Shown here piece after piece: positions 40,474 through 58,400 of a DNA stretch of 64,000 bases. Location of the stretch: the NCBI GenBank assembly GCA_947630685.1, contig CANRII010000001.1, forward strand, positions 199 through 64,198. The letters run 5' to 3'. Position 1 is the stretch's first letter. Every line of letters begins with the position of its first letter. A program made the position numbers and the translations under genes. Source of the stretch: an uncultured Ruminiclostridium sp. (lineage in GTDB: Bacteria; Bacillota; Clostridia; Oscillospirales; Ruminococcaceae). The notes under the pieces are model-generated. The model had not been told where the DNA came from, did not search any database, and saw only the letters and a program-made list of their open reading frames with translations.

Positions 40474-40532
40474 TTTTAGGTTATTTAGTTGTTTATGTAT
40501 TCTGTTAATATGAAAAATCGGGTTATTTCCTC

Positions 40533-41780
40533 TTAAAAAAGGATAGCATTTACTGCGTCGATCAGCGTCATATCATTTTCAAGCAATACTGTATGACACC
40601 CGGCTGATTCTCCGGCTTTCATATCAGTCACGGAATCTCCAATCATCCAGCTTTGTGACAGATCAATGTTGTATTTTTCCGCTGCTTGAAAAATAAGACC
40701 CGGCTTAGGCTTGCGACAGTCACACTCGAATTTATATTCCGGTCTTTCACCCGGAAATCCTTTATCCGGATGGTGAGGACATATAAATATATCATCAATA
40801 TATGCGCCTTGTTGACCGAGCAGCGTCTCCATCTTCCTGTGTATTTCATACAACTCTTCCCATGTGACGTCGCCTCTGGCGATCACCGGTTGATTCGTAA
40901 TTACGATCACCAGATAACCGCTGCGGTTTATTCGACGTATAGCCTCAGCGACACCGTCGATCAGTTCAAAGTCATCTATATTACGCAGAAAGCCTATGTA
41001 TTTATTTATAGTTCCATCCCTGTCCAAAAAGACAGCCTTTTGTTTGCAGCTGAGATTCCTGCTTTTAACAAAGCCTGTTTGTATGTCTTTCTCTACTTCA
41101 CGTATTCGTTCGGGTGTACCCATATCCTTCACATACTCAGGAGAACGGTAAGCATATATCTTTCCCGACGGTATCAACGGTTTGAGAAGCTCCCTGTCCA
41201 GATCTGTCTTTTTTGCTTCTCTTAAATTTTCGATCACACGCAAAGACAATACATGAATTCCCGCGTTGACGCAATTTGAATACCATCCGCGCTCGTCCTC
41301 TTTAGTAAGCCAATCAAGTACGCAGCCGTTTTCATCTGTGATAATGATACCGCTGTCATAAGGGTGATCGTTCGGATGAGCGAGAAGTGTAACATCAGCG
41401 TTATGGGCTTTGTGAAAATCCATCAAGCGGTGAAAATCAACGTCAAAGATCATATCACCGTTCAAAAGCAGAAAATCATCTTTAATTTTTCCATTCAGAT
41501 AATACAGCGCACCTGCTGTGCCAAGAGGAACATCCTCACGGATATACTCTATATTAACGCCGAATCTGCTTCCGTCACCGAAATGATTGCAGATCTGATC
41601 TGCCATATATCCAACGGTGATGATAATATCTGTAATGCCTTGTTTTGCCAAGCATTCAATTTCATGCTCTAACACCGGTTTTCCTGCTATCGGCAGAAGA
41701 GGCTTAGGGATAGTGCTGTTCAATGACGCTATCCGCGTACCCTTGCCGCCCGCCATAATGACTGCGGTCATATTACTCAT
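40533..41780 (-). CDS. Fused heptose-1-phosphate guanylyltransferase (HddC-like) / heptose-1,7-bisphosphate phosphatase (GmhB-like)
   Basis: AGGKGTR nucleotidyltransferase N-domain; C-domain FLDRDGTIN, TNQP, CPHHP, CRKPKPG, MIGDS. Confidence 0.9.
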   Translation of the reverse strand: MSNMTAVIMAGGKGTRIASLNSTIPKPLLPIAGKPVLEHEIECLAKQGITDIIITVGYMADQICNHFGDGSRFGVNIEYIREDVPLGTAGALYYLNGKIKDDFLLLNGDMIFDVDFHRLMDFHKAHNADVTLLAHPNDHPYDSGIIITDENGCVLDWLTKEDERGWYSNCVNAGIHVLSLRVIENLREAKKTDLDRELLKPLIPSGKIYAYRSPEYVKDMGTPERIREVEKDIQTGFVKSRNLSCKQKAVFLDRDGTINKYIGFLRNIDDFELIDGVAEAIRRINRSGYLVIVITNQPVIARGDVTWEELYEIHRKMETLLGQQGAYIDDIFICPHHPDKGFPGERPEYKFECDCRKPKPGLIFQAAEKYNIDLSQSWMIGDSVTDMKAGESAGCHTVLLENDMTLIDAVNAILF

Positions 41781-42405
41781 GCCCCCAGAACTGACACTCC
41801 AAAGCCGCACAGATAACGTGATAAATAGTGGAATGGATATCCTGTATGTCCTCTGTGATTTGGGAATCGGCAATAATGGTAAGATCAAATATGTCTTTCA
41901 TCTTTCCTCCGTCACGACCTGTCAGACCTATGGTCTTGACGCCCATTGCTTTTGCAGCATCCGCGGCGTAAAGGATATTTTTAGAATTTCCGGAAGTGCT
42001 TATACCGAGGAACACATCTCCCGCACGTCCGTAACTTATTACCTGCTGAGCAAATATGTATTCTCCGCCTACATCGTTTATCATAGCGGTAACCAATGAC
42101 GTATGAGCACCAAGGTCTATTGCCGGCAGTCCGCCCTGAAGCTTGTCCTTAAGCTCGTCTATAAGCATCGCATCCTTTATATCATCGGTCAGCGGGCGCT
42201 GAAGTCTGAATGATTTTACCAGTTCTCCGACAATATGACCGGCATCCGCATTGCTGCCGCCGTTGCCGCATATAAGGAGTTTGCCGCCGTTCTTGAAAGA
42301 ATCCTCCATGATCTCCACAGCTTGACGGATATTCGATTCCAATGGCGCTATGAATTTATGCTGTGCTCTGTATTTATCAAACAATTCTTCTGTACTTTTT
42401 TTCAT
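41773..42405 (-). CDS. gmhA: Phosphoheptose (sedoheptulose-7-phosphate) isomerase
   Basis: LLICGNGGSNADAGHIVGEL, GISTSGNSKN, GLTGRDGG, IQDIH. Confidence 0.92.
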   Translation of the reverse strand: MKKSTEELFDKYRAQHKFIAPLESNIRQAVEIMEDSFKNGGKLLICGNGGSNADAGHIVGELVKSFRLQRPLTDDIKDAMLIDELKDKLQGGLPAIDLGAHTSLVTAMINDVGGEYIFAQQVISYGRAGDVFLGISTSGNSKNILYAADAAKAMGVKTIGLTGRDGGKMKDIFDLTIIADSQITEDIQDIHSTIYHVICAALECQFWGHE

Positions 42406-43415
42406 GCTTCCCAAACCTTTCTTTTGTCCGGATCGTATATCTCCGGAGTGTAATATAATATCCTGCTGCCTCCGTTATCAAAATCGAACGGGATCTCCAT
42501 CAGATCTTCGAGAGCCTTTCGTACTGCTCCCTGCTTGTTTTGCGGAACATAGAACAACAGGAATCCGCCTCCGCCGGCGCCTAAAAGCTTCCCTCCGAGT
42601 GCTCCTGCGGATACAGCTTTCTGGTAATGCGCATCAATAGCGGGATTGGATACTTTTCCGTTGATTTCACGTTTTAAGTTCCACTCATAATCCAACATCG
42701 CTCCAAAATCGTCGATGCGTTTTTCTATTAACGCCTTTTCAGCGTCATCTACCAAGTCTTTCATTTTCAGGAGCTGACTGTTTTTCTTATCAATATTTTT
42801 CTCCTGCTCCACCTGAATATCTGAGGAAAAGCGTGAGATACCCGTAAAGAACAGCATCAAGTTATCGCTTAGCGCTTGTTTAGTATCATTATCTACGATC
42901 ACAGGCAGTACTTCATAACCTTCCTGATTAAATACTATCTTATTCAGACCGCCAAATGACGCGGCTATCTGATCCTGTACTCCGCCGCTTTCTTTGCATA
43001 GTACTCGTTCAAGATAGATAGCTTCGTCCGCAAGACGACGCTTGTCCACGTATTTTCCTTTAAGAGCATAGAATGCCGAGAGCAGTCCCACCGCAAAGGA
43101 ACTGCTTGTTCCAAGTCCTGTCCGAGCCGGAAGATCAGCATCATAAAGTATGTTTAACTCGTGCATATCCAAAAATTTCATGGCTTCCCTGACCGCAGGA
43201 TGCTGGATCTCCTCTATACTTATCGTGCGTTCCGTCCTGGAATAGGAAATGTAATTGGAATAATCAAAGAAAGGCGGAAGATGCCGCACCGTTAAATAAC
43301 AGTATTTGTCTATGCTGGTGGATAAAACTTGTCCGCCGTATTTCTCATAAAATCCCGGAAAATCTGTTCCGCCCCCAAAAAAAGAGATTCGGAACGGTGT
43401 CTGTGTAATAACCAT
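42402..43415 (-). CDS. hddA: D-glycero-alpha-D-manno-heptose 7-phosphate kinase (GHMP)
   Basis: TPFRISFFGGGTDF, PARTGLGTSSS, GGVQDQ, GKLLGAGGGGF. Confidence 0.92.
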   Translation of the reverse strand: MVITQTPFRISFFGGGTDFPGFYEKYGGQVLSTSIDKYCYLTVRHLPPFFDYSNYISYSRTERTISIEEIQHPAVREAMKFLDMHELNILYDADLPARTGLGTSSSFAVGLLSAFYALKGKYVDKRRLADEAIYLERVLCKESGGVQDQIAASFGGLNKIVFNQEGYEVLPVIVDNDTKQALSDNLMLFFTGISRFSSDIQVEQEKNIDKKNSQLLKMKDLVDDAEKALIEKRIDDFGAMLDYEWNLKREINGKVSNPAIDAHYQKAVSAGALGGKLLGAGGGGFLLFYVPQNKQGAVRKALEDLMEIPFDFDNGGSRILYYTPEIYDPDKRKVWEA

Positions 43416-43435
43416 ATCATTTACCCTCACTTAAT

Positions 43436-44452
43436 TTATCTGGTTAAGAATTGTTCTCCATTTCCTATGCGCATCCTCCAATAATCGAGAAGATCACGCA
43501 TGGTTTGTTCATATGGTATGATCGGCTCCCAGCCGGAATGCTTTTTGAACTTAGTGCAATCCGGTACCTGAAGATCTGCATCTATTGGACGCAGGCGTTC
43601 CGGATCAACTTCTATTCGGATCTCATCTTTCTTTGGAGAGAATGCCAGCAGCGTATTTAGCGTATCTTCCACAGTACAGGTGTAACTGCCGCCTATATTG
43701 TAATACTCACCGGGAATGGGATCTATCGTTACAAGCATATAATATGCTCTTACCGCGTCACGTACATCGGCGTATGTCCTCAGAGATTTGAGATTACCTA
43801 CTTTTACAACAGGTTCTATAAGCCCTGCCTCGATCATGGCTATCTGTTTTGCAAATGTAGATTCATGAAACACATCTCCGCGCCGCGGACCCGTATGGGT
43901 GAACATACGCGTTGTCATTACTTTCATATTATACGCTTCTGCATAATACCGCCCCAAAAGATCGGTACCTACTTTAGAGATAGCATACGGCGACGCCGGA
44001 TGAAACGGACATTCCTCATGAATACCTGTTGCAGGCTTCTTTTCCGGCGGTATCTTACCGAATACTTCCGAAGATGCACACACATGAATTACAGGGTCGA
44101 TACCTACCACACGCACCGCTTCCAATAAACGGCAGGTACCAAGTATGTTCGTGTTCAGCGTATCTATCGGCGAATCGAAACTTGTCAGCGGATAACTTTG
44201 CGCCGCCAAATGAAATATATAGTCCGGTTTTACTTTTTCTATTAAATGTATGAGCGATACTGTGTCATTCAGATCGGCATATTCAAAATATACACGGTCT
44301 TTATTGTTTACTCTCTCGATCAAATGTGATACATTATCTAACGGACTCCTCCATCTGCACGCTCCGTATATATCCCAATCTGTTTCTTCCAATAAATAGT
44401 CTGCTAAATGCGAACCTACCATTCCCGTTATACCGGTTATTAACGCTTTCAT
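43436..44452 (-). CDS. GDP-manno-heptose/GDP-mannose 4,6-dehydratase (DmhA/DdahA-like)
   Basis: LITGITGMVGSH, HLAAQS, SSEVFG, SPYAISK, THTGPRRGDVFHESTFAKQIA, RLRPIDAD. From memory this resembles heptose-specific dehydratases more than canonical Gmd. Confidence 0.85.
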   Translation of the reverse strand: MKALITGITGMVGSHLADYLLEETDWDIYGACRWRSPLDNVSHLIERVNNKDRVYFEYADLNDTVSLIHLIEKVKPDYIFHLAAQSYPLTSFDSPIDTLNTNILGTCRLLEAVRVVGIDPVIHVCASSEVFGKIPPEKKPATGIHEECPFHPASPYAISKVGTDLLGRYYAEAYNMKVMTTRMFTHTGPRRGDVFHESTFAKQIAMIEAGLIEPVVKVGNLKSLRTYADVRDAVRAYYMLVTIDPIPGEYYNIGGSYTCTVEDTLNTLLAFSPKKDEIRIEVDPERLRPIDADLQVPDCTKFKKHSGWEPIIPYEQTMRDLLDYWRMRIGNGEQFLTR

Positions 44453-44477
44453 TTGTATTCCTCCTTGAAATAAAATT

Positions 44478-45386
44478 TTATCGACCGTAAAGATTCCTAT
44501 AACGCTGGATCAGTCCTTCTCGCAGTCCGATTTTTGGCGTCCAGCCTAAACGACCTATCTTTGTGCAATCCAGCTTTTCCCGCTGTGCTCCCTCGGGTTT
44601 TGATAAATCATGCTCTATCTCTCCGCAATATCCGCTTATTTCTTTCATAAGCTCCGCAAGATGAGAGATCGTATCCATTTCCGACGCACCGATATTTATA
44701 TAAGGTTCGGAAAAATCGCTGTTTATCAAGATATCTATAGCGCTTGCAAGATCATAAACGTGCAGAAATTCTCTTTTTACACGGCCGGTACCCCAAATAG
44801 TAACGGTTTTCGCACCATCTGCAACAGCTTGATAAAAACGTTCCATCATTGACGGCAATACCGATGACATATCGGGTTTGTACCCTTCTCCGTCCCCATA
44901 AAGATTTGGAAGCAGAACAGATGTATATCTAAGTCCCATACTCAAATTGTAGTATTCACAAAGTTTCATGCCGGCAGCCTTTGCCATACCGTATGGTTCT
45001 GTAGCTTTTTGGACATTTCCGTTAAAGATCATATCCTCTGTGAGCGGACCTTTCAGCCCCTCAGCATAAACACAACTTGCTCCAATATTAATTAGTCTTT
45101 CGACTCCGTTTTCAGCCGCCGCAGTAATGGAGTTGGCGCATATCAGCAAGTTATCCCTGTAATATTCCAGTGGTGAAGCCATATAGCTTGCTACGCCGCC
45201 GTGTTTTGCCGCCGAAAGGATCATAACATCAGGTTTCGTCTTGCGCAAATAATTACTGATCTGACTATGATCCCGCAGATCGACCTCCGCCGAGGATGTC
45301 GACGTCAGTTCTACGTCTTTGTCTTTATAATATCTGCGTATTGCACTTCCGACCAATCCGTTTTTTCCTGCTAAATATATCTTCAT
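44478..45386 (-). CDS. GDP-L-fucose-synthase-like epimerase/reductase (second copy; ColC-like candidate)
   Basis: GKNGLVGS, SAAKHGG, GASCVY, PYGMAK, WGTGRVKREFLHV, KPEG. Confidence 0.85.
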   Translation of the reverse strand: MKIYLAGKNGLVGSAIRRYYKDKDVELTSTSSAEVDLRDHSQISNYLRKTKPDVMILSAAKHGGVASYMASPLEYYRDNLLICANSITAAAENGVERLINIGASCVYAEGLKGPLTEDMIFNGNVQKATEPYGMAKAAGMKLCEYYNLSMGLRYTSVLLPNLYGDGEGYKPDMSSVLPSMMERFYQAVADGAKTVTIWGTGRVKREFLHVYDLASAIDILINSDFSEPYINIGASEMDTISHLAELMKEISGYCGEIEHDLSKPEGAQREKLDCTKIGRLGWTPKIGLREGLIQRYRNLYGR

Positions 45387-45459
45387 TCCGACATCACCTC
45401 CAAATGATCTTTTCCCGTATGTTTTATACTCAAGTCATTTCCTCCTTATTTATCTTTTC

Positions 45460-46626
45460 TCAAACTTTGTTCAACAGCTCGCAAAGTCTTATAATTTTCT
45501 CTCTTTCCAAACTCGGATAGTTGCCCGTATAAAGGCCATAGAAATGAATAAAATCCGCGTTTTTCAGTAAGGAAGGGTCAAATTCAGGCATACGACATCT
45601 AACAAAAGGCTGCCGAGCCAAATTTCCTCCGCCGGCTGTACCCCTTCTAAATTCCACGTTTTCCGATCTCAATAGTTCCGTCAGTACGTCAAACTGTTTA
45701 CGGTCGGGATGACGCAGAAGAATAATAAACGCATAATTGACCTGACCTTCCATCTTAAAATCCGTATAATACTTTTCGGGATCAAGATTTTCAATAAAAA
45801 GCTTAAAATTCTCTACCCGTCTTTTGTTGTTTTCGTCCAATCGCTTCAACTGATTCAACCCGATAACGGCATTCAATTCGGTACTGCGCATATTATAACC
45901 GGGTACCGCAAAAAGAAATTCCGGACGCAGCTCCGAATATTTCTTTGCATACTCCTGCTTCATGCTCTCGTCTGTTAATTCTCTTATCATACCGTGACTG
46001 CGGAACATACGGCACATCTGATAAAATCTATCGTCATTTGTGCATATTACTCCTCCTTCTATCGTACTCATATGATGAGCATAGTAAAATGAAAAGTTAG
46101 ACGCAAGACCAAACGATCCGCATTTCTTTCCGCCCATTGTTGTACCGTGAGATTCGCAGACATCTTCGATCAAAGGGATACCGCGTTTTTCAAGCTCTGT
46201 CAGCAAACCGAGAGTCAGACCGTTAAGGCCCAAAACATGGGTAAGAAATACTGCTCGCGTTTTATCTGTGATATGTGACAGTATCTCATTTTCGTCCATG
46301 GAAAGGGTACTGATATTAACATCCGCAAAAACCGGCGTAAGCCCTGCCGCAAGCACAGACGAAATGTCGCTGCTCCATGCTATAGGCGGAACTATTACTT
46401 CTCCCTCTCCGTAAAGCTCTTTAAGTACCGCCATGGTTATGTAATTCGCCGACGCTCCGGAATTAACGAACAAGCTGTGTTTAACTCCCAGCCAACTGCT
46501 CCAGGCATCCTCAAATTCCCGTACTTTTGATCCGTTGGTAAATCGATCTGATGTGCGGATAAAATCGATAAGCTTCTCTTTATCCTCTTGGGATATGTTG
46601 TTGCTCATTAAAGGAAGGTTAAGCAT
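45460..46626 (-). CDS. DegT/DnrJ-fold PLP enzyme with His at the catalytic Lys position (ColD-like 3-dehydratase)
   Basis: NSGASAN, EDVCESHG, FSFYYAHHMSTIEGG (H where aminotransferases have K), GYNMRSTE; 388 aa. Confidence 0.85.
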   Translation of the reverse strand: MLNLPLMSNNISQEDKEKLIDFIRTSDRFTNGSKVREFEDAWSSWLGVKHSLFVNSGASANYITMAVLKELYGEGEVIVPPIAWSSDISSVLAAGLTPVFADVNISTLSMDENEILSHITDKTRAVFLTHVLGLNGLTLGLLTELEKRGIPLIEDVCESHGTTMGGKKCGSFGLASNFSFYYAHHMSTIEGGVICTNDDRFYQMCRMFRSHGMIRELTDESMKQEYAKKYSELRPEFLFAVPGYNMRSTELNAVIGLNQLKRLDENNKRRVENFKLFIENLDPEKYYTDFKMEGQVNYAFIILLRHPDRKQFDVLTELLRSENVEFRRGTAGGGNLARQPFVRCRMPEFDPSLLKNADFIHFYGLYTGNYPSLEREKIIRLCELLNKV

Positions 46627-46671
46627 ACAGCCTGCCTCCCCTCTGTTTTAAGGATCGGCTTGGCGGTAATA

Positions 46672-47037
46672 TTATGACATCCGGAAGATGTCTAATACCC
46701 CCCCACCCCAATCATTTTCAACACCAACGTCATACAAGCTGATCAGTAAAGTATCTTCCAAATACTTGAAACTATGTACCGTATTAGTTTCTATGGCGAA
46801 AAAATCTCCTGACGAAAAAGTTTTGTTCTGTTGTTCCCCGTCTAATGATAATGTAACCTCGCAAGAACCGCTGATTATATAGAACGCTTCTCTGTTTTTC
46901 TTGTGATAATGCCCACCCCGAACGGTATTACCCTTTGAAAATATAACATTAACTTGACGCCAACCGTCATGCACCAGTTGTGCTAAGCTTCCCCGTTCAT
47001 CCTCATGTATAAAATCGGGATGCATAATCTTATACAT
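46672..47037 (-). CDS. Cupin-fold sugar-nucleotide isomerase/epimerase (QdtA/WxcM-like)
   Basis: DERGSL, RGGHYH, HSF; ATG 47037 overlaps the upstream stop (TAATG). Confidence 0.75.
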   Translation of the reverse strand: MYKIMHPDFIHEDERGSLAQLVHDGWRQVNVIFSKGNTVRGGHYHKKNREAFYIISGSCEVTLSLDGEQQNKTFSSGDFFAIETNTVHSFKYLEDTLLISLYDVGVENDWGGGVLDIFRMS

Positions 47038-47981
47038 TACAAGTCCTCCTTTTGCTGCACAATATTCTTCAAATACCACTCATACTCCCGTTTTAAGCCT
47101 TCAGACAATGTTACTTTCGGACTCCAACCCATGGCAATAATTTTTTGGCTATCCAACAGACGACGCGGCATACCGTCGGGCTTTGTGGTGTCATAGTATA
47201 TTTGGCCTTCATATCCAACCGTTTTGCGAATTTCCTCTGCTAATTCCCGAATTGACATTGTGAAACCCATTCCTATGTTGATGGTCCCTATTTCATCATA
47301 ATGTTCCATGATCAACATGCAGGCGTCCGCTGCGTCATCAATGTGCATAAACTCCCGTTCTGCACTTCCGGTCCCCCATATCTCCACACGATTTTTGCCG
47401 GTTGTTTTTGCCTGATGAAACCTCTTGAGCAATGCCGGTATCACATGGTTGCCTTCATCAAAGCTATCGTTTTCACCATAAACATTTGCAGGAATACAGC
47501 TTACGAAATTATCGCCATATTGTCGTTTATAATAATCACACAAACGCACGCCTGCGATTTTTGCTATAGCATATCCCTCGTTTGTAGGTTCAGGCAAGCC
47601 TGTCAGCAAGTATTCCTCTTTTACGGGCTGAGCCGCTTCTCTCGGATATATACAGGACGAACCAAGATAAAGCAGTTTTTTTACACCTGTTTCATGTGCA
47701 GCTTTGAGAACATTGCAAGTGATCAGCAGATTTTCCATGGCAAAATCCGCCATGTATGCATTGTTCACGTCGATGCCGCCTACTTTAGCCGCTGCAACGA
47801 AAACATATTCTGGTTTTTCGTCTTCAAAGAACTTTTTAGTTGCAGCTCCATCTGTCAGATCAAGCTCGGTATGTGTCCGGGTGAGGATATTGTCAAAACC
47901 GTTCCGTTCCAATGCGCGCATTATAGCGGAACCAAACAACCCGCTGTGACCGGCCACATAAATTTTTGAATCTTTTTTCAT
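47037..47981 (-). CDS. fcl: GDP-L-fucose synthase family epimerase/reductase
   Basis: IYVAGHSGLFGSA, AAAKVGGI, LGSSCIYP, PTNEGYAIAK, HVIPAL, WGTGSAEREF, KPDGMPR. Confidence 0.9.
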   Translation of the reverse strand: MKKDSKIYVAGHSGLFGSAIMRALERNGFDNILTRTHTELDLTDGAATKKFFEDEKPEYVFVAAAKVGGIDVNNAYMADFAMENLLITCNVLKAAHETGVKKLLYLGSSCIYPREAAQPVKEEYLLTGLPEPTNEGYAIAKIAGVRLCDYYKRQYGDNFVSCIPANVYGENDSFDEGNHVIPALLKRFHQAKTTGKNRVEIWGTGSAEREFMHIDDAADACMLIMEHYDEIGTINIGMGFTMSIRELAEEIRKTVGYEGQIYYDTTKPDGMPRRLLDSQKIIAMGWSPKVTLSEGLKREYEWYLKNIVQQKEDL

Positions 47982-48166
47982 GTGTGATACCACCCTTACT
48001 ATAATAAATTTAGAAGTTAGATCCATAACAAGCCGTTATGGTCTTAATACACTTATACAATGTATAATGACAGGCAAACTCATAGTATATCCTCCTTTTT
48101 TAATCAAAAATCCCAACAGGTATAAACCGTTTTGTAAGGCAAATAAAGACTTTTTGCCCTCCAAAA

Positions 48167-48791
48167 TTATATAAGTTTCATTACTTCCGCAGTCTTGCGG
48201 GCGATTTTCTCGCTGCCTTCTTTTGAAAAATGGACTCGATCACGATGGATCTCGCTAAACATAAGCGAATAAAGATCATTGACTTTCAGTTTATATTTTT
48301 CGGCGATCTTTTTTGCGATTTGATTGCGCTTTATTATTTCGTTATTGATTTTTTCATCCAGTTCAGATAAGTTACTCTGTTTAACAATAGAAGTAGTTAG
48401 TGCGATCGTCAAATCGGGAATATATCTCAAAACATAAGTAACCAATTTTTCATACGCTTTTTCAAACTCATCAATGGAATCGCTTTGAATTGCATTTCCA
48501 AATCCGTCAATGCCGTGTACGCCGATTTGAATCTGCGCTTTGTACTGACGGTACTCCTCATAGGAAAAGAATAGATCAAGCGTTTTATAAAACTTATCGT
48601 CAGAAATATTTGTAGTTGTCGCAAAAAAGTCTACCGGCTTTTTTGTTAACTGCGCAAGCGGCCCTCTGTACTCACGAGCAACCGAATCACCTATCAGCAG
48701 TATCCTGTCGGTGCGTTTTTCATTTGCATAGTCAAACCAGAAATTAAGCCATTCAACGTATTCTCTGCCTTTAATTATACCCCCCCCGCAT
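48167..48791 (-). pseudogene. SGNH/GDSL hydrolase-family gene lacking an in-frame start in the G8 state
   Basis: Open frame IKGREYVEW...RILLIGDSV...DRVH continues into track ORF 48167..48445. ATG 48791 is out of frame by one base across the run at 48780-48787. Confidence 0.75.
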
Positions 48792-51495
48792 TATTTTGGG
48801 GTTCCGCAGCAGACTGCATATTGGAAGCAGCGGCTTTTTCTTTAGCGTCTTTCTCGTTGATATCTATAACTGCTTCCTCTTTGAAATTTCTAACATCATA
48901 TTTATTTTTTCTTACATATTGTTGAAATAAATTCATTCTATTCTTGTCGGAAGTAACAAACACTTCCCATCTATCACTATACAAAGCGGCAATTGTCGGA
49001 AAATAACTTTGGCTTGCAATAATAACTTTTCCAAGGGCCATTAACTGAATATCCCTGTAACTTTCTTCTCCTTTATTTGAATCCACAAAAAACAACTTAT
49101 CTTTTTCGATCTTATCAATTCCCAACTGCTCTAAATTTAATTTACACCATTTTATGTCATCTGAGAAAATAAAGATTTTTTTGTTTAGATAATCATCGAT
49201 TTTCATTACCGATTGAATGGTTGATTTATAATATTCATTATCAACAGACACACCGGCTGTAACATAATCTCCTCGTCTTACATGCATGACAATAGCGTCA
49301 CATGACGTCATTTCATCAGCTAAACTAATTAGTTGTTCGCTTTCAAAAGGTGGAAATGCTATAAAATCACTCAACTTAAAATCATAATATTGCTTTAAGG
49401 TTTCTATTCTTAACAATAAATTGTAATACATGTGCGGGCTTTTGAATTCAATAAAATCTTTTTTGTTTTCCCCACATAAATAACACGGAGCTCCTTTAGC
49501 GTTTTTTTCATATCTTACATAATTAAAACTCTGTGTCATGTAAGTATATTTTTCTGATAATTTCAAATAGATTTTTTTGAACAATTGATTGCCATATTCT
49601 CGTATTGGCGTCAGTCTGGGTGATAGCTTCGAAGTTAATAAACTCATCGGTTCTTTAGCAAATTTATCGACCTCAAATCCGTTGAATGCAGAACACTTAG
49701 TCGTATCATAAATAACTTTTTTATGCGCATACTTTTCAATAATTTTTCCCATTACAAAATTGCACAGCTGATCGCCTAATCCTGCTTCTATATTAACTGT
49801 CACTATGTCAGGATCTAATAATTCCGTAAGATCCATAATTGGAATAAAGTCATTAATATCAGCAGGATCTTTGTTATCGCCTATAACAAATACAAACCTC
49901 TCATTTTTCAATAAGTCGCAATAATTTATAAAATACAAGCTTTCAACAAGCTCCTGCTTACTGTTAAATCTTAGATATGTCGGCTTGTTGCCATCTTTAT
50001 TTCTTGCCTTTTCAACATAATAGTCATAGCTGTATGTCAATGCGTCGGCGCTGTCTATAGAACAGATATAGCCGTCGGCGATAATTTTCTTATAATCAAG
50101 CTCTTTCGCATTAAATTCAAATTTCCTTATAGGCGTTTCGGAATTTGGATTCAACACGAGCCAGCAGTTATTTACCAAGGGCACATACACGTCACCATTA
50201 TCTTCCGTAAATTCTTTTACAGATATATACGGATACTCTTTAAGAAAAGCTATATTTTTCTCTTTGAATTTTCTTGCAGAGTTCACAGAAATACAATCGC
50301 TGTTGCTTAAAATATTAGAAACGATTTTTTTGTATTCTGCTGCATTTTCGCAATTGCTGCATAGCAAATAAACCGCAATAATATCGTTCAGCTCCAGCTT
50401 AAAATAACGGGTGTAAAGCTCGACCAGTTCAATATCAGCGGTAATTTTTTTACTTTGCACATCAACTGCGTATTCTGCAAGACGATATTTATTTTCAACA
50501 TCAAGAAATTGTCTGAGCTTTATTATATTATCAAAAAATTCACAAGTACCTGACTGAAGTTTGCTCAGCTTATCTACGTTGAGCATATTATCGTCAATAT
50601 ACTTCAAATGCTCCGCATTGTGAGAAATTATATCTTTTGATAGTCTTGAAAGCAAAGTCTTGAAAAAGTCGCTTGTATATCCGTAAAAATGCGGTTTATA
50701 TGCGTCTGTGTTTTTATTGACGATGATATCGTAGATCTCTTCAGCAACAGCCTTAGCCGAATCCGCGCTCATCTGGATATAAGGAAACCAACATTCAACA
50801 TATTTCGGCGGGATGTTATTACAATGTTCATTTACAACTAAGCAATGTGTTCTTTCGATAAAATAATTGTCTATCCGCTCCATCATCCCAACAAATTGTC
50901 CGGATAACTTTTCAAACACTCCGACGTCATGGTCGCTCATATAAAAACGCGAGCAATTTGAACGGATAAGAATAATATGATCCGGATCGTACTCTTTCAA
51001 GACGATATCAATAAATCTGTCATAATAATACTTCCAGTTGAACGAGCCTGTGAAAGGAAACGTTCTTCTTGTGAACCCGCCCTCGCTGTTTTTTATGGCG
51101 TTTCTTATTTCTTCGGTAGTATATTCGGAATAAACCATGTCTGCTTTTTCCAGAACAGGAAGTTCTATGCTGGAATTCATATAAATCAGATATTCTGATG
51201 TGTTGCTCAATCTAACCTCTTTGCTTCTGGGTTGAATATTGTAATTATCGGAAAAATTCTTTGGATCGTGCGACAATACCTTATCTAAATTTTTTCTTAT
51301 ATTAAGCAGTTCGTGTGGCTTCAAATCAGGCATATCGGAGTATTTCTGATATGCCTGATCAAACGTGCCTGTCATTGCTAAGGGGCTGCAGCCATTAATC
51401 ATACTTTCAGTCAATATGCCCATATTATTTAATTTTTTACTAACCGAATCAAGAAAACTGCCTATAATTTGTATTCTGTTTTTGTGACACGACAT
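48775..51495 (-). CDS. Large protein with C-terminal GT11 (alpha-1,2-fucosyltransferase-like) domain
   Basis: AGLGDQL, MHVRRGDYV, FIFSDDIKWC, DIQLM...SQSYF...AALY; about 570 aa unassigned N-terminal region. Confidence 0.82.
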   Translation of the reverse strand: MSCHKNRIQIIGSFLDSVSKKLNNMGILTESMINGCSPLAMTGTFDQAYQKYSDMPDLKPHELLNIRKNLDKVLSHDPKNFSDNYNIQPRSKEVRLSNTSEYLIYMNSSIELPVLEKADMVYSEYTTEEIRNAIKNSEGGFTRRTFPFTGSFNWKYYYDRFIDIVLKEYDPDHIILIRSNCSRFYMSDHDVGVFEKLSGQFVGMMERIDNYFIERTHCLVVNEHCNNIPPKYVECWFPYIQMSADSAKAVAEEIYDIIVNKNTDAYKPHFYGYTSDFFKTLLSRLSKDIISHNAEHLKYIDDNMLNVDKLSKLQSGTCEFFDNIIKLRQFLDVENKYRLAEYAVDVQSKKITADIELVELYTRYFKLELNDIIAVYLLCSNCENAAEYKKIVSNILSNSDCISVNSARKFKEKNIAFLKEYPYISVKEFTEDNGDVYVPLVNNCWLVLNPNSETPIRKFEFNAKELDYKKIIADGYICSIDSADALTYSYDYYVEKARNKDGNKPTYLRFNSKQELVESLYFINYCDLLKNERFVFVIGDNKDPADINDFIPIMDLTELLDPDIVTVNIEAGLGDQLCNFVMGKIIEKYAHKKVIYDTTKCSAFNGFEVDKFAKEPMSLLTSKLSPRLTPIREYGNQLFKKIYLKLSEKYTYMTQSFNYVRYEKNAKGAPCYLCGENKKDFIEFKSPHMYYNLLLRIETLKQYYDFKLSDFIAFPPFESEQLISLADEMTSCDAIVMHVRRGDYVTAGVSVDNEYYKSTIQSVMKIDDYLNKKIFIFSDDIKWCKLNLEQLGIDKIEKDKLFFVDSNKGEESYRDIQLMALGKVIIASQSYFPTIAALYSDRWEVFVTSDKNRMNLFQQYVRKNKYDVRNFKEEAVIDINEKDAKEKAAASNMQSAAEPQNNAGGV

Positions 51496-51600: not shown

Positions 51601-51993
51601 TCACATCATATCTATAAGTTTACCATGCTTTTCATATCGGCTGGTTCTGAAGATTCGATTTTCTTCGTCCACAAACACAACCTTCGGAGGATTATTTTTT
51701 ATTTCCTCCGGACTCATATCCGCATATGACATGATTATAACAAAGTCGCCTTTCTGACCGCAGCGTGCAGCCGCTCCGTTAAGACAAATAACACCGCTTC
51801 CGCGTTCTCCGGCAATCACATAAGTTTCGATCCTGCTACCGCTATTAATATTCACTATATGAACATGCTCATATTCCACTATTCCTGAAGCATCCATAAG
51901 GTCTTCATCAATAGTGATACTCCCTACATAATTAAGCTCTGCCTGTGTAATAACGGCACGGTGAATCTTGCTTTTTAATACAGAAATATTCAT
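51601..51993 (-). CDS. panD: Aspartate 1-decarboxylase
   Basis: [11 protein letters not shown]|SITID self-cleavage site, [16 protein letters not shown]. Confidence 0.95.
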
Positions 51994-52127
51994 TTCTCTT
52001 CCTCCATTTATTTTGTTTTTTTATTTCAACACCATATATGATATGGTGCGAATAAACCATAATACATCCGGGTTATAACCCTACATTATTGTTTAATGTC
52101 TCAGATGTTATTCTAAAACAGCTTATA

Positions 52128-54443
52128 CTATATAGAAGCCGTTTTTCTAATATCATCTAATTTCCCTTCAAGAGTTTGTACTTTCTCTTGCATTGTTTTG
52201 ACCAAATTTTTTTCTTTTCGAATATCATGTGGTATCCACGTGGTATCAATATATATAATGTCTCCATCGTCAACTTTACGAGAATACTTAAACGGTTTGT
52301 CATGAGTTATTGATTTTGTTTCGTTAAATACTATCTCGCCATTGACAATAAGCTTTTGAAAATCCATTTTTATAGGGATCCTGCTATTATCTGCATATTT
52401 AACATCCATCGTTCTTAAGAAAATATCAAATCTCCCGCTTTTTTTACAACGAAATATAATACTTATTGAGCCGGAACTTGACTGAATTATATAGCCGTTC
52501 CCATTTTTATTGAACCAAGTCGGTGAAGAAATTGACGCATTTGTATCTGATACTTTTATAAGCTCAATTCTGTTATCATCAGAATCAGAATTTTTTATAT
52601 CTATTCTTCCGGTAATATAAAAATCTATCAACTCGTGAAAACGTAGTGATGACCGACTTGTGCTGTAGTTTGGCTCGTCTTTATTATACTTAGCTGCGGT
52701 ATTTTTTATAAAATCCGCCGGTAATGAGGGGGTTGCTTTAGGCGATGAAATATCTTCAATTATATTACATATTGCAAGTGCCGCAAAAACGTTTCGCATC
52801 GGAAAATACGACCTTTTCTTAGAATCGTCGGAAATATAATTATATACTTCTTCGTTGTAATAAAGCAAAAATGTATTTTTCATTTCATTACTGTGAAAAG
52901 CGTCGCTTAACAATTGCTCAGGCAGCTTTGAGTCAAACTTTTTGACCTTAGCCATTTGAACAGCTTTTACATCTGTTTTTATACAACTGTTGTTTTGAAC
53001 ATCAACATAAGGAAAAGCTTTATTAACCGTTTTTACATTTTGAATTGTAGAGTCCTTAAATCCGCGATTACTGTCAAATTTAAAGTCAAGCAGCTTACTA
53101 CAATAACGATCCAATATTATAGCGTAAAGTGCACTCATATCATCTTTGTCCCGTGAAACATACAGCTTCAACTTTTGCAAATCTGAGTCTAAAAGCGGAG
53201 ATAAATAAAAAACATTTGAATAGTAATTTTCCACAGTCATCTTTCCAAAATGACTTCTGTTTCCTGTTTCACGCCATAAAATATTTGCTAAATTTTGAGG
53301 GTCTATAGATGCTCTTCCAAACGATTTGAATTTATCTCTGATTTCGCTGAAAGTTTTTTCAAATATGGTTTTTATAGATTCTCTGTATTTTTCAATATCA
53401 TCAAAGCGATACTGCAAACCGAAATTTATTAGTTTTTCTATGAAAAATGTTTCATTTTTACACCAATACACACGATCTCTTACGCATTCTCCTCCAAAGC
53501 CCGAGAAACTGTATTTAGGTTTTTTATAACGAAACATATGAAAATGATTTTCCTTATGAAAACATGCTTGCATATACCAAGAAATATTAAGAGCATCTTC
53601 CAAACTGTAATTATCCGCTTCTGCAGAAAAAGTTTGATTGTTCAAACCAAAACCAAAATATTTAGAAATCTGTGAGGCGATTTCATAATCTTCAGTATGA
53701 GTATGTAAGCCGTCATTTAAGGATTTAACAAACATTTTATTCAAATCCACGCCTGAATTTAATGCTAACGCAAATACTACTCTGGAGTCGAATCCGCCCG
53801 TTAATTCAAATTTTATATCTTCGCCGTTTTCCGCAAGACTTTTTATTATTCCTATCCATTTTCTGTACCAATTATCAAGTATTGATATTCCCTCTTCAGA
53901 GTCAAGCTCAACGGTGTTTTCTTTATAGTCTACACAATACCAGTCAATAGATTTATCTGAAATATTTAATTCAACAACTGCGCTGCGATCCAAAAGTGAT
54001 ATCTCATTTACCATGGTTTCGGAATAAACATAAGAGCTCAGATTGGATGTAAGCATAAAATTCGCATAATTTCGATTAAAAGTTATTTTTCGGGATGCCT
54101 TTATATAATCAATAAGATATATAAACGAATTGCTTAAGGCAAAATAACTCTCATCTTTGTATAAATACAAACCGTAAGAACCAATAAAATCTTGTTTTAT
54201 TGTGATTTTATTGCCGTCACGTTTTATATACATATATGCTCCGCTGCCATTTGGCTCAGCACCTGCAAGCGATTCAAATTTATCGGTTATCACATTATTA
54301 ATAACGCAGAAACCGTATAGTTTGCTCGTTACATTCTGCATATTGTCAGAATCAATTACAAAAAATGCCTCGTTCGGATCAAAATTCCTAGTATTGACAT
54401 TTTCATTTGTTGATCCTTTATTCAAAAAATTCATTTCAACCAC
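52128..54443 (-). CDS. Asparagine-synthetase-like ATP pyrophosphatase domain protein (no N-terminal Cys)
   Basis: DFIGSYGLY Ntn-like segment, LTGGFDSR PP-loop, SGFGGECVR, SPLLD; C-terminal beta-rich domain and short coiled coil. Confidence 0.65.
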   Translation of the reverse strand: MVEMNFLNKGSTNENVNTRNFDPNEAFFVIDSDNMQNVTSKLYGFCVINNVITDKFESLAGAEPNGSGAYMYIKRDGNKITIKQDFIGSYGLYLYKDESYFALSNSFIYLIDYIKASRKITFNRNYANFMLTSNLSSYVYSETMVNEISLLDRSAVVELNISDKSIDWYCVDYKENTVELDSEEGISILDNWYRKWIGIIKSLAENGEDIKFELTGGFDSRVVFALALNSGVDLNKMFVKSLNDGLHTHTEDYEIASQISKYFGFGLNNQTFSAEADNYSLEDALNISWYMQACFHKENHFHMFRYKKPKYSFSGFGGECVRDRVYWCKNETFFIEKLINFGLQYRFDDIEKYRESIKTIFEKTFSEIRDKFKSFGRASIDPQNLANILWRETGNRSHFGKMTVENYYSNVFYLSPLLDSDLQKLKLYVSRDKDDMSALYAIILDRYCSKLLDFKFDSNRGFKDSTIQNVKTVNKAFPYVDVQNNSCIKTDVKAVQMAKVKKFDSKLPEQLLSDAFHSNEMKNTFLLYYNEEVYNYISDDSKKRSYFPMRNVFAALAICNIIEDISSPKATPSLPADFIKNTAAKYNKDEPNYSTSRSSLRFHELIDFYITGRIDIKNSDSDDNRIELIKVSDTNASISSPTWFNKNGNGYIIQSSSGSISIIFRCKKSGRFDIFLRTMDVKYADNSRIPIKMDFQKLIVNGEIVFNETKSITHDKPFKYSRKVDDGDIIYIDTTWIPHDIRKEKNLVKTMQEKVQTLEGKLDDIRKTASI

Positions 54444-55449: not shown

Positions 55450-58400
55450 CTACTTTTTATGTTGTTCCAGAGCTGCGATTTTTTTTGCCTGCTCTGCAAC
55501 TTTAGTTTCAAGGGTTTTTCTTTCTTTTCTGTTCCACGTTAATTTTTCGATAACTTCTTTTTCCGTTCGAATTTCGGTGTCGGAAACCTTTATTTTTCTG
55601 TCGGGGCTGCTGAGCTCAGCAACTTTTTGGCTTAGGGCTTTTAGCTTGTAATCAAAGTAAGCGGTACAGCCATCATGATCTTGTGCTTCGGAAATATTGA
55701 TAAATTGACTGTATTCCGATTTATTATCATAAAAATTCTTACCATAATCCCTTATATCAAGGTTTTCAAACCACTCTTCTCGCAGCTTATCAAACAGCAT
55801 GATCGCCTGTTCCTGAGGGAGCGTATTGAAATTCCATAAACAGCTGTGCAAAGCATAATTAACAAACGACCTTCTGTATCTGTCATATACTCCCATATTG
55901 ACAAGCTCACCGCGAACCTTGTTTAACGCGTAGTAGAAGCATTGCCATGAGAGATATCGGGTAGATGAAAGAGAATCGGGATTGTTTCTCCTCTGATTGT
56001 ACAGGCTTTCTTTCACAATAGTTATTGAATCAGCCTTAAAAAGAGAAGCAAACACGAAATACATATCATTTGTCGTTCTCTGTTCTTGGAACAAAAGTCC
56101 GTTATCAAGTACGAAATCTTTTCTGTAAAGCTTATCCCATGCCCATCCCATAAAGACTTTGAATTCATTGCCGTTAATTTCGGAAATATTGAAAACATCC
56201 TCTTTGGGGAGCATTTCGGGTCTTATCGAAAATGTGCAGGGTTTTCTTTCACGAGTCTGATAGTCAAATAGGCTTGATGCAAATATGCAAATATCTGCAT
56301 TTCGGCTTGTGATCGCCGTATATGTCTTTTTAAGCAGATCACGCTCAACGTAATCGTCCGCGTCGGGAAAATAAAGATACTCGCCGTTAGCCGCCGCGAT
56401 CCCTTTATTTCTCGCCACTCCTGCTCCGCCGTTTTCCTGGTCAATAATGACAACACGATCATCAAGAAGAGCATATTCCGTTAAAATCTCCAACGAATTA
56501 TCCGTTGAGCCGTCATTTACACAGATAAGCTCTATATCATCAAGCGTCTGATCCAAAAAGCTGTCAAGGCACTCACACAAATACTTGCCTACATTGTAAA
56601 CCGGAAGGATAACAGATACCTTAACACCGCCGTTTCTCTTTATTGAATAGAAATAATCCTCCGGATCGCGTATAATATAATTCAGCTCATTCCACTGCCG
56701 GTCTGTAAACGCGCTTTTATCAAGTCCGTTGGCGTTTTTTTCTTCGATGAATATATCGTGAATATAATTTATATATTCCTGTTTTGCATTTATATCAATA
56801 TCAGATAATAAGGACATATAAGCATCGTATTTTCTTTCCTGATAAGAGGATAAGAATCTTTCCTTGGCGACAGGCTTAGCGTCAAGATAATCAAGAATAT
56901 GAGCATATTCCGACTGTATGCTTTTGCATTTATTAACATAAGATGCTTTATCAGTTTTAACGCATCTGTTAAAGTAAAAAGGCTTATCGATAAACATACA
57001 TTTTTCAGCTTCTGCAAACACCTTGAATATAAACACGCTGTCGGCAGGAAGTGCATCGGCATCTTCGGTATACCGAATTAGTCTTTTCTTCAAAAACAAT
57101 GTACGATAAACGGCGCTTAATCCGTTTTTGCCGTATTTTAAGCAATGTGTGTAAATGTAAGGATGAATAACTCTGTTATAATCACTTGATCCATCGCACA
57201 GCTTTACATCTCGATTTCTAGATATCGCAAAATTGCTGAAATCTGACATAACAAAATCCAGATCGTTCTTAACAGCCCGACTGTAAAGTGTTTCAAGCAT
57301 ACCGGGAAGAATATAGTCTTTTGCATTTATTATGGTGACATATTCACCTGAAGCCATGTCTATTCCCAGATTAACAGTCCGACCGTAATCTTTATCCGAT
57401 TTATCAATAACCTTAACGCTCGATTCAACAGCGGCAATTTCTTTTAACACATCAAGAGAATTATCGGTTGAACCGTAATTTATGCATATAACTTCGACAT
57501 CGCCCAATGTCTGCCCGATTATACTATTTATGCATTTTCTGACATAGCTTTCCGCATTATAAACAGGAACAATGACTGAAACTTTAGCTTTGTCTTTAGA
57601 TCCTTTGCAGTTAATACGCTCTTTTATTAAACTTTTTTCAACCGTATTCCTAACAACCGGCATACTTCTAAACGCATTCTCATCAAATCTACTGCCATAG
57701 ACATATATGTATTCTTCCTCGTCAAGACGGATGATTTCGCTGTATTCGGCGTACCAGGATCTGACAGAATAGTCGCTATAAGTATTTTTTATAAAATCAA
57801 TATCCGACGAAATATTCTCGAAGAAACGCTTAGTAGGTTCAAATACAATATGAAAACGCTTATCCGATATTGCTTTGAATTCATCAAGTATGCATCTTAT
57901 TTCTCCTTGATAAACATCTGCTTTGACCTTGCTTTCTTCGTCACGGATCAACTCTGAAACAGCCTTATAGGACTCAAAACGTTCCAGGAAGCGTTTTGTG
58001 CATTGTTCGGAAAAAACATTATCCTTTTCTGATACACTAAAAACAAGCTCTTCATTAAGGAAAAGCGTTTTCTCGGCATTTAACAAAGCATTTACACACG
58101 GGAGCCAATCAAAGGAATAATCAAAATTGCCGAAATGAAAATTAATTTCATCCGAATAATCTTTGCGCAGCATAACTCCGGAAAGCGTCATATTAATTTT
58201 AAGGAATAAATCGCTGTTGTATCTGAAATTAATAAGTTTTCCGGTTTTATCAACGGCAACATCGGACATTTCTTTAATTCCGGTATTGAGTCTGTAACTT
58301 GTTTTTACGATATCAGCACCGATTTTTTCAGCGCTGCTGTACATAGTTTTAAGCGCATTGGGATTGAGATACTCATCGGGCTCGATGAAAATATAATACT

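Follow-up and report, generated by a model that had tools for sequence, protein, structure and literature searches.

Introduction

3,6-Dideoxyheptoses belong to the rarest of bacterial sugars. In the searchable literature, they are described only from the capsules of Campylobacter jejuni, and none was found outside this species. The pathway to GDP-3,6-dideoxy-beta-L-ribo/xylo-heptose in C. jejuni HS:5/HS:11 proceeds through a 4,6-dehydratase, a pyridoxal 5'-phosphate (PLP)-dependent C3-dehydratase and a C5-epimerase to a final C4-reductase (Ghosh, Xiang and Raushel, 2023; PMC10440746). The C3-dehydratases of C. jejuni are 62-67% identical to ColD, the 3-dehydratase of the colitose pathway (PMC10440746). 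In the present work, a gene cluster at positions 40533-47981 of a 64,000-nucleotide stretch of contig CANRII010000001.1 from an uncultured Ruminiclostridium sp. (the whole stretch is termed the window) was analysed. The cluster extends from a fused HddC-GmhB gene to the gene of an Fcl-like enzyme, Fcl1, and it encodes a PLP enzyme with His in the place of the Schiff-base Lys. GDP-heptose itself is not new in Gram-positive bacteria, because a GmhA/HddA/GmhB/HddC route to it was reportedly established in 2001 in a Firmicute, Aneurinibacillus. The window operon is likely to go further and to convert sedoheptulose-7-phosphate to a GDP-3,6-dideoxyheptose. A preliminary description of the locus had known of no Gram-positive example of such a pathway, and no deoxyheptose pathway was found for Firmicutes or Clostridia in the searchable literature.

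Results

GDP-heptose supply and the 4,6-dehydratase

Eight genes were found intact on the minus strand (Table 1), and every gene listed in the preliminary description was among them at its coordinates. All frames were intact, and the motifs GGKGTR and DRDGT were visible in the HddC-GmhB fusion, as were GxxGxxG and YxxxK in the operon proteins. The true start of HddC-GmhB was the ATG at 41780, which overlapped the GmhA stop. The start that had been assumed for Fcl1, the ATG at 47981, was preceded by a ribosome-binding site. The four activities of the GDP-heptose route were all encoded contiguously, namely, an SIS isomerase, a GHMP kinase of the alpha-anomer type, an HAD 7-phosphatase and a guanylyltransferase with the NTP_transferase fold. 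The GmhB part passed its NCBIfam cut-off (TIGR00213, 153.9 bits; cut-off 149.6). GmhA reached 160 bits with TIGR00441 (cut-off 209), the HddC part gave 96.6 bits with the NCBIfam HddC model, below its cut-off, and HddA was the best NCBIfam family of the kinase, with 134 bits against a cut-off of 600. The best matches of the kinase in the PDB were heptokinases, that is, WcbL 4usm (7.8e-40), 3k85 and C. jejuni HddA 4n3o. According to the domains, the GmhB score and the kinase matches, the HddA/GmhA/GmhB/HddC set recognised earlier forms a complete four-step route. The top NCBIfam match of the HddC domain, with 180 bits (cut-off 440), was the Rv-type mannose-1-phosphate guanylyltransferase (ManC) model. 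The GTP specificity of this domain is suggested by the homology of the later enzymes to GDP-sugar enzymes (7us5, GFS and ColD).

The 4,6-dehydratase matched 7us5, the C. jejuni GDP-D-glycero-D-manno-heptose 4,6-dehydratase, with an E value of 3.3e-112, 378.5 bits and 55% identity over 327 columns. Its scores were at most about 148 bits against genuine GDP-mannose dehydratases and 195 bits against 2pk3 (Rmd), and the Gmd model gave 174-178 bits against a cut-off of 415. Orthologues with 74-97% identity were found in related Clostridia cassettes. Judged from these scores, the enzyme appears nearer to the characterised heptose enzymes than to the GDP-mannose ones, and the earlier label of a DmhA-like dehydratase can be sharpened to orthology with 7us5. 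No Gmd over the cut-off was found in the genome, which was 96.7% complete; the sole match of the model was the DmhA orthologue itself (174.5 bits, cut-off 415). No match to a GMP_PMI-type ManC was found in the same genome. Hence, GDP-heptose was the only evident substrate. The paralogues of HddC found elsewhere in the genome by tblastn were GlgC (contig C32), GalU (C57) and a nucleotidyltransferase fragment of 79 aa at the edge of C81. With the exception of this fragment, the lack of a GDP-mannose pyrophosphorylase that had been noted for the window therefore holds genome-wide.

The PLP enzyme with His in the place of Lys

The top PDB match of the PLP enzyme was ColD 2gms (5.9e-50, 32% identity). 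Its segment FSFYYAHHMST aligned with FSSFYSHHIAT of ColD. His184 corresponds to ColD His188 at the Schiff-base Lys position, because the mutant entries 3b8x (H188N) and 2r0t (H188K) mark this column; the His reported earlier at the Lys position was thus located. ColD Ser187 was replaced by Ala. The residues S56/G57, W84, D155, E158, S179, N245 and R247 were invariant in the 80 clade members described below, and they align with the cofactor-binding set of ColD. The AlphaFold (AF2) model of the enzyme, for which 24 clade members served as input, had a predicted local distance difference test (pLDDT) score of 92.9. The top PDB match of this model in Foldseek was ColD, with a template modelling (TM) score of 0.86, and the fold was thereby confirmed. 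At the invariant catalytic loop Ala-His-His-Met-Ser (residues 183-187), and exactly there, the pLDDT dropped to values under 50. To our knowledge, the characterised DegT enzymes with His for Lys, namely, ColD, E1/RfbH and the C. jejuni C3-dehydratases, are all 3-dehydratases. The PLP enzyme is predicted to be the C3-deoxygenase of a GDP-4-keto sugar, and the gene context points to a heptose as the substrate. The enzyme is probably ColD-like in its working and is not a ColD orthologue, given the 32% identity, a very long branch in the tree and the change of Ser187 to Ala. The designation as ColD-like in the preliminary description was therefore borne out for the fold and the predicted chemistry and not for orthology, since the window enzyme lies far below the 62-67% identity to ColD of the C. 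jejuni C3-dehydratases and falls in a separate, multi-phylum clade.

An RfbH/E1 identity was rejected for the PLP enzyme. The RfbH model gave 186 bits against a cut-off of 423, no Cys-rich iron-sulphur (Fe-S) motif was present, and no E3-like reductase gene was found in the operon. The true RfbH of the genome was on contig C62; it scored 723.6 bits and contained the CICPSGHDNFCGH stretch, a Cys-rich motif and His-His at the Lys position. Hence, the genome has two different 3-dehydratases of the His type. The action on a CDP-sugar in the manner of RfbH, which had been raised earlier as an alternative, is disfavoured because of the low RfbH score, the lack of the Cys motif and of an E3 partner, and the presence of a real RfbH elsewhere. 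The region C62:335-5081 was a second deoxysugar locus, with RfbH, two short-chain dehydrogenases/reductases (SDRs), an open reading frame (ORF) resembling hexapeptide acyltransferases, and RmlC (177 bits).

Relatives of the PLP enzyme and their gene neighbourhoods

Relatives were scanned with one genome per species, which gave 494 related stretches, and the clade analyses were carried out on the best 80 of these 494. The 80 relatives were 55-94% identical to the window PLP enzyme. Their hosts were Clostridia, Paenibacillus, Negativicutes, Cyanobacteria, Myxococcota, Verrucomicrobiota, Binatia, Nitrospina and a candidate phyla radiation (CPR) bacterium, among others. The clade motif was FSFYYAHHMSTIEG, and FSFYYAHHM(S/T)T(I/V)EG was invariant in all 80 members. 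The 80 loci were searched by tblastn with the window proteins and the proteins of two distant loci, and neighbourhoods were counted for those 45 loci that had 6 kb or more on each flank. An HddA-like kinase was encoded in 44 of these 45 loci, and a candidate enzyme for making GDP-4-keto-heptose was encoded in 42 (21 DmhA-like, 26 with a strong match to 6vo6). The PLP gene thus lies nearly always beside genes for GDP-4-keto-heptose, which is the substrate class that a 3-dehydratase of the ColD type needs. This conservation is the strongest indirect evidence for the function of the PLP enzyme.

Two types of cassette were distinguished. In type A, to which the window belongs, the PLP enzyme was accompanied by a DmhA orthologue, mainly in gut Clostridia. 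Its cultured carriers include bacterium D16-51 (L018), in which the cassette is complete and contains the cupin, as well as Clostridium porci WCA-389-WT-23D1 (L013), Lachnospiraceae strain X68 (L024) and the mouse isolates of L011 and L021. In type B, DmhA was absent, and an SDR had 6vo6 as its best PDB match (E value 1e-111). Type B loci (L040:1-14350, L042:6000-16300 and most of L039-L080) came from many phyla and included an Fcl1-like SDR. They usually also encoded a thiamine diphosphate (ThDP)-dependent enzyme resembling pyruvate dehydrogenase E1 and a B12-radical S-adenosylmethionine (SAM) enzyme. The E1 alpha and beta parts were fused in L040 into a protein of 678 aa. The entry 6vo6 is presumably Cj1427, a GDP-heptose C4-dehydrogenase. 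The Raushel laboratory obtained GDP-3-deoxy-4-keto-heptose in vitro with Cj1427 and a C3-dehydratase (PMC10680097). Therefore, the chemistry proposed for type B is feasible too. The logic of type B resembles C-branching of the yersiniose or AviB1/B2 type, on a GDP-3-deoxyheptose.

ColD and the RfbH of the genome served to root the tree, from which the C. jejuni C3-dehydratases were absent. The window PLP enzyme fell within a well-supported group of 12 members, all of which were associated with DmhA. ColD was attached by a very long branch. Both roots are very long branches, and for this reason no conclusion was drawn on the origin of the clade. In two loci from Lachnospiraceae isolates (L021 and L024), the PLP enzyme, DmhA, HddA, GmhA and HddC-GmhB were present, and no Fcl1- or Fcl2-like gene was found within 10 kb. 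Another reductase must therefore complete the sugar in these isolates.

Reductases and the cupin

Two Fcl-like reductases and a cupin had been listed in the preliminary description, and all three were present. Fcl1 retained Ser107, Tyr136 and Lys140 together with the Cys109/His179 dyad (GFS numbering), and by this residue set it is of the GFS/ColC type. The roles of the Ser-Tyr-Lys triad and of the Cys109/His179 epimerisation dyad are known for GFS (PMC7949155). The NCBIfam Fcl model gave 435.6 bits for Fcl1, below the cut-off of 500, so that the protein is not an Fcl equivalog; this score fits a changed substrate. Orthologues of Fcl1 with 46-81% identity were found in most related cassettes. 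On a 3-deoxy substrate, an enzyme of the GFS/ColC type would epimerise only C5 before the reduction at C4. By analogy, an L-xylo product would be formed.

Fcl2 had Ala at the position of GFS Ser107 and Ser at that of His179, and it retained the Cys, Tyr and Lys. The enzymes DdahC and MlghC, which likewise lack the Cys/His dyad, are reductases only (PMC7949155). Fcl2 is predicted from its residues to be a 4-reductase of this kind, without epimerase activity. Among the 80 loci, an orthologue of Fcl2 was found only in the nearest relative, L001, with 94% identity. The cupin matched Polysacc_synt_C (PF14667, 3.4e-9), Cupin_2 (1e-8) and FdtA (2.8e-5) in Pfam, and it carried an HxH...E...H motif. 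Its model had a pLDDT of 74, and the top Foldseek match was the CapF cupin domain 4yrd (E value 3e-8, TMq 0.73). An RmlC-type epimerase role was rejected for the cupin, as it is CapF-like and has no RmlC family match. The cupin was shared only by L018 and L025 among the 80 loci. It was absent from L001, in which the Fcl1 and PLP genes abut, and the cupin is therefore accessory. Hence, the core of the pathway comprises the dehydratase, the 3-dehydratase and Fcl1, and Fcl2 and the cupin are add-ons of limited distribution. These add-ons may provide a second isomer or a 6-deoxyheptose. Since Fcl1 and Fcl2 differ in their catalytic dyads, two stereoisomers are plausible, though unproven.

Table 1. 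Operon genes and the neighbouring transferase gene, with positions in the window.
Feature	Position	Strand	Basis
HddC-GmhB fusion	40533..41780	-	Pfam NTP_transferase 3.9e-34 and HAD domains
GmhA, sedoheptulose-7-phosphate isomerase	41773..42414	-	SIS_2 4.7e-23; best family TIGR00441
HddA-type GHMP heptose-7-phosphate kinase	42402..43430	-	GHMP_kinases_N and GHMP_kinases_C domains
DmhA/WcbK-type GDP-D-glycero-D-manno-heptose 4,6-dehydratase	43436..44452	-	PDB 7us5 match
Fcl2, divergent Fcl-like SDR, 302 aa	44478..45386	-	39% identity to E. coli GFS
PLP/PMP-dependent sugar 3-dehydratase (predicted), 388 aa (PMP, pyridoxamine 5'-phosphate)	45460..46626	-	DegT_DnrJ_EryC1 2.6e-66
Cupin, small metal-type, 121 aa, CapF-cupin-like, putative 4-keto-sugar epimerase	46672..47037	-	Pfam matches
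Fcl1, GFS/ColC-type bifunctional epimerase/4-reductase (predicted), 314 aa	47037..47981	-	50% identity to E. coli GFS
906-aa protein with C-terminal GT11 domain, candidate transferase	48775..51495	-	Glyco_transf_11 (PF01531) 5.6e-11, residues 729-847

The GT11 protein and the surrounding island

The protein with the glycosyltransferase family 11 (GT11) domain was encoded by the next large gene upstream of the operon, and an orthologue with 60% identity was found at the same position in L001. The adjacent GT11 of the preliminary description was thus recovered, and its donor-binding motif I (HxRRxD) was intact as HVRRGDY (residues 738-744). This motif suggests a GDP-beta-L-sugar donor, in agreement with the L-configured product predicted for Fcl1. 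The GT11 enzymes WbgN and FUT2 accept GDP-beta-L-colitose, L-fucose and L-galactose (PMC11987014). Therefore, these two enzymes tolerate changes at C6. At the extreme end of the GT11 gene, a run of eight G was observed (codons GGG GGG GTA TAA), and an SGNH-like ORF with no obvious start codon followed it (window 48167-48800). The run could be a slippage switch, and the SGNH-like ORF could encode an O-acyl modifier of the glycan. A second copy of panD (TIGR00223, 167 bits) was located in the island, in the region 51601-54443, with a 56%-identical paralogue on C30. It adjoined the gene of a 771-aa protein without a family match, near UDP-glucose dehydrogenase. This placement may point to a uronic acid decorated with beta-alanine. 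A protein of 2046 aa with six GT2 domains was encoded at 55450-61590, and several island proteins had no family assignment. No Wzx/Wzy or ABC exporter genes were found in the island within the contig.

Host genome, transfer and prevalence

The source genome was a rabbit-gut Clostridia metagenome-assembled genome (MAG) of 2.25 Mb in 174 contigs, with 48.5% G+C and 0.7% contamination. Spo0A was matched above its cut-off. The near relatives of the cluster were all from Clostridia, and many of them were rabbit-gut MAGs. Based on both results, the Firmicute assignment made earlier for the host stands. The window genes between about 63.8 and 40.5 kb followed one another on the minus strand without a break, and a scan of the locus for promoters and terminators gave promoter-like sites only at chance level. 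Across 40-62 kb, the G+C content dropped to 0.33-0.45 from a level of about 0.50. The comparison with L001 gave 90% nucleotide identity over window positions 40524-45401 and 87.5% for the PLP gene. Within the aligned region (40524-51484), the Fcl1 and GT11 genes were 76-79% identical, and the identity further upstream was 67%. For the upstream glycosyltransferase genes, the range was 67-79%. The similarity stopped exactly at 40524, beside a housekeeping metY-like gene. This mosaic suggests a recent recombinational exchange of the sugar-nucleotide block. No members of the PLP clade were found in 24 species of the same genus, in 16 of the same order, or in 398 other sampled Clostridia species, for which up to four candidates per genome were scored and two genomes were left unscored. 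Given the drop in G+C, the patchwork with L001 and the absence of the clade from the sampled species, the cassette is rare and mosaic and has moved horizontally. The best reading of the eight genes is a single operon inside a low-GC, horizontally acquired glycan island.

Discussion

Proposed pathway and its alternatives

The gene content, the catalytic residues, the orthology of the 4,6-dehydratase, the absence of a GDP-mannose route and the conserved neighbourhoods agree with the colitose-like handling of a GDP-heptose that the preliminary description had proposed. This proposal is supported by the complete heptose route, DmhA, the His-for-Lys enzyme, Fcl1 of the GFS/ColC type and the GT11 protein, from which the product is deduced. 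The DmhA orthologue would dehydrate GDP-heptose to GDP-6-deoxy-4-keto-D-lyxo-heptose. The His-for-Lys enzyme would then strip the 3-OH by the mechanism of ColD, with glutamate-derived PMP and with neither an Fe-S cluster nor a reductase partner. Subsequently, Fcl1 would epimerise C5 and reduce C4, as in ColC, and the GT11-domain protein would transfer the resulting sugar. The two add-ons, Fcl2 without the epimerase His and the cupin of the CapF kind, would together probably lead to a further stereoisomer or to a 6-deoxyheptose as a side product. By analogy with ColC, the main product is probably the L-xylo sugar, that is, the heptose homologue of colitose and the same sugar as in C. jejuni HS:11.

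Several points weigh against this pathway. The source genome is a MAG, and GmhA, HddA, HddC and Fcl1 each score below their NCBIfam equivalog cut-offs. The PLP enzyme is just 32% identical to ColD, from which it is separated by a very long branch, and its clade has no characterised member. Foldseek ranked ordinary DegT aminotransferases (TM scores 0.82-0.85) almost level with ColD, so that the structure search does not separate dehydratases from aminotransferases. The catalytic loop is the one low-confidence stretch of the model. The stereochemistry is drawn from the GFS/ColC analogy. Furthermore, the truncated nucleotidyltransferase fragment on C81 stays ambiguous and leaves room for a source of GDP-mannose.

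The most serious of the other explanations, though an unlikely one, is that the PLP enzyme does not remove the 3-OH and instead catalyses some other PMP-dependent reaction, for example, a 4-transamination that yields a 4-amino-4,6-dideoxyheptose. DmhA and an enzyme of the GFS type suffice for a 6-deoxy-L-heptose, and six such isomers occur in C. jejuni (PMC10440746). Moreover, the PLP enzyme is remote from ColD, in a clade that has not been characterised. The CapF-type cupin also resembles a domain that epimerises C3, a reaction for which the 3-OH is needed. However, the Schiff-base Lys on which DegT aminotransferases depend is His in all 80 clade members, and the characterised DegT enzymes with this exchange are, as far as we know, all 3-dehydratases. 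The PLP gene also belongs to the core of the cassette, whereas the cupin and Fcl2 genes do not. Scarcely more improbable is that the 3,6-dideoxy-4-keto-heptose is formed and the final sugar is D-configured or is modified further by the cupin, the SGNH-like ORF or other island enzymes, for instance, through O-acylation or rearrangement. The sister cassettes add ThDP-dependent E1 alpha/beta and B12-radical-SAM enzymes, which indicates that the clade serves to open routes to more elaborate sugars. Fcl2, without the epimerase His, could reduce the un-epimerised D-threo intermediate, and the island holds several proteins that no family claims. Against such an outcome, no homologue of the E1, radical-SAM or 6vo6-type enzymes was found in the genome, Fcl1 has the full catalytic set of GFS, and the GT11 domain points to a beta-L donor.

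A hexose pathway, in which the dehydratase, the PLP enzyme and Fcl1 make GDP-colitose from GDP-mannose and the heptose genes serve a separate residue, is very improbable. It would draw on the activity of DmhA-type enzymes on GDP-mannose in vitro, on the best NCBIfam match of the HddC domain to the Rv-type mannose-1-phosphate guanylyltransferase (180 bits, cut-off 440) and on the C81 fragment. It is disfavoured by the absence of Gmd over the cut-off and of a GMP_PMI ManC from the 96.7%-complete genome. The dehydratase is also 55% identical to 7us5 (378 bits), in contrast to about 148 bits for genuine GDP-mannose dehydratases. In addition, the nucleotidyltransferase is fused to GmhB, and HddA-like kinase genes accompany the PLP clade in 44 of the 45 well-flanked loci. 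The route that converts sedoheptulose-7-phosphate to a GDP-3,6-dideoxyheptose therefore remains the preferred explanation.

Significance

If this conversion takes place, the class of 3,6-dideoxyheptoses extends to Gram-positive gut commensals. The pathway would have been assembled a second time, with another lineage of 3-dehydratase and with logic of the colitose type. A function would also be gained for an unnamed DegT clade that was seen in 80 loci of many phyla, and the enzymes would be useful in the chemoenzymatic synthesis of GDP-deoxyheptoses. Deoxysugars of L-configuration that GT11 enzymes have attached are targets for recognition by host lectins, antibodies and phages. The island is mobile and rare (0 of 24 congeners, 0 of 398 Clostridia) and would make a sugar of this recognised type; hence, it is a plausible determinant of surface differences between bacterial strains in the gut. 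A wider proposal, for and against which we see about equal grounds, is that the window enzyme belongs to a ColD-like lineage dedicated to GDP-heptose, spread over many phyla and separate from the clade of ColD and the C. jejuni enzymes. In gut Clostridia, the minimal form with DmhA would then give the first Gram-positive 3,6-dideoxyheptose (L-xylo), placed by GT11 on a surface glycan as a fucose- or colitose-like gut epitope, and the sister forms would lead to 3-deoxy, carbon-branched heptoses.

Comparison with known systems

The window cassette has several likenesses to described systems and differs from each of them. The unmodified heptose at which the Aneurinibacillus route reportedly stops is formed with neither a 4,6-dehydratase nor a 3-dehydratase. 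RfbH/E1 with its E3 partner shares with the window enzyme the DegT fold, the His for the Schiff-base Lys and, as predicted for the window enzyme, the C3 deoxygenation of a 4-keto-6-deoxy sugar. The window enzyme differs from it in lacking the Cys-rich Fe-S motif and a nearby E3-like gene, and in its score with the RfbH model (186 bits, cut-off 423). The type B cassettes have in common with the window a 3-dehydratase of the same clade (55-62% identity), together with GmhA, an HddA-like kinase, a nucleotidyltransferase and an SDR of the Fcl1 kind. In contrast to the window, the 4-keto group is apparently made there without removal of the 6-OH, and carbon-branching or methylating enzymes are added. 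The window genome is without these extras and thus carries a minimal, colitose-like version.

The C. jejuni pathway is matched in the predicted order of the chemistry, in the orthologous 4,6-dehydratase (55% to 7us5) and in the predicted L-xylo product, which is the HS:11 sugar. The enzymes that follow the 4,6-dehydratase differ. The window PLP enzyme is 32% identical to ColD and belongs to another clade, whereas the C. jejuni C3-dehydratases are 62-67% identical. C. jejuni uses an RmlC-like cupin C5-epimerase (about 180 aa, His/Tyr dyad) and an SDR that is a reductase only. In the window, an enzyme of the GFS/ColC type with a Cys/His dyad is predicted for both steps, and the cupin is small and CapF-like. 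No RmlC-like C5-epimerase was found beside the window C3-dehydratase, where the only cupin was the 121-aa protein related to CapF and Cupin_2. Moreover, HddC and GmhB are fused in the window, and the host is a Gram-positive gut anaerobe. The colitose pathway shares with the window a 4,6-dehydratase, a His-for-Lys 3-dehydratase without an Fe-S partner, a bifunctional Fcl-like epimerase-reductase and a nearby gene of the GT11 type, and ColD is the best match of the PLP enzyme in the PDB by both sequence and structure. It differs in the substrate, which in the window is probably a heptose and not mannose, in a genome without ManC and Gmd. The window 3-dehydratase is 32% identical to ColD and has Ala for ColD Ser187, and the window GT11 domain forms the C-terminal portion of a multidomain protein of 906 aa. 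Overall, the chemistry of the proposed window pathway corresponds to that of the C. jejuni 3,6-dideoxyheptose pathway, its enzyme logic is that of colitose, and its 3-dehydratase is a non-orthologous relative of ColD.

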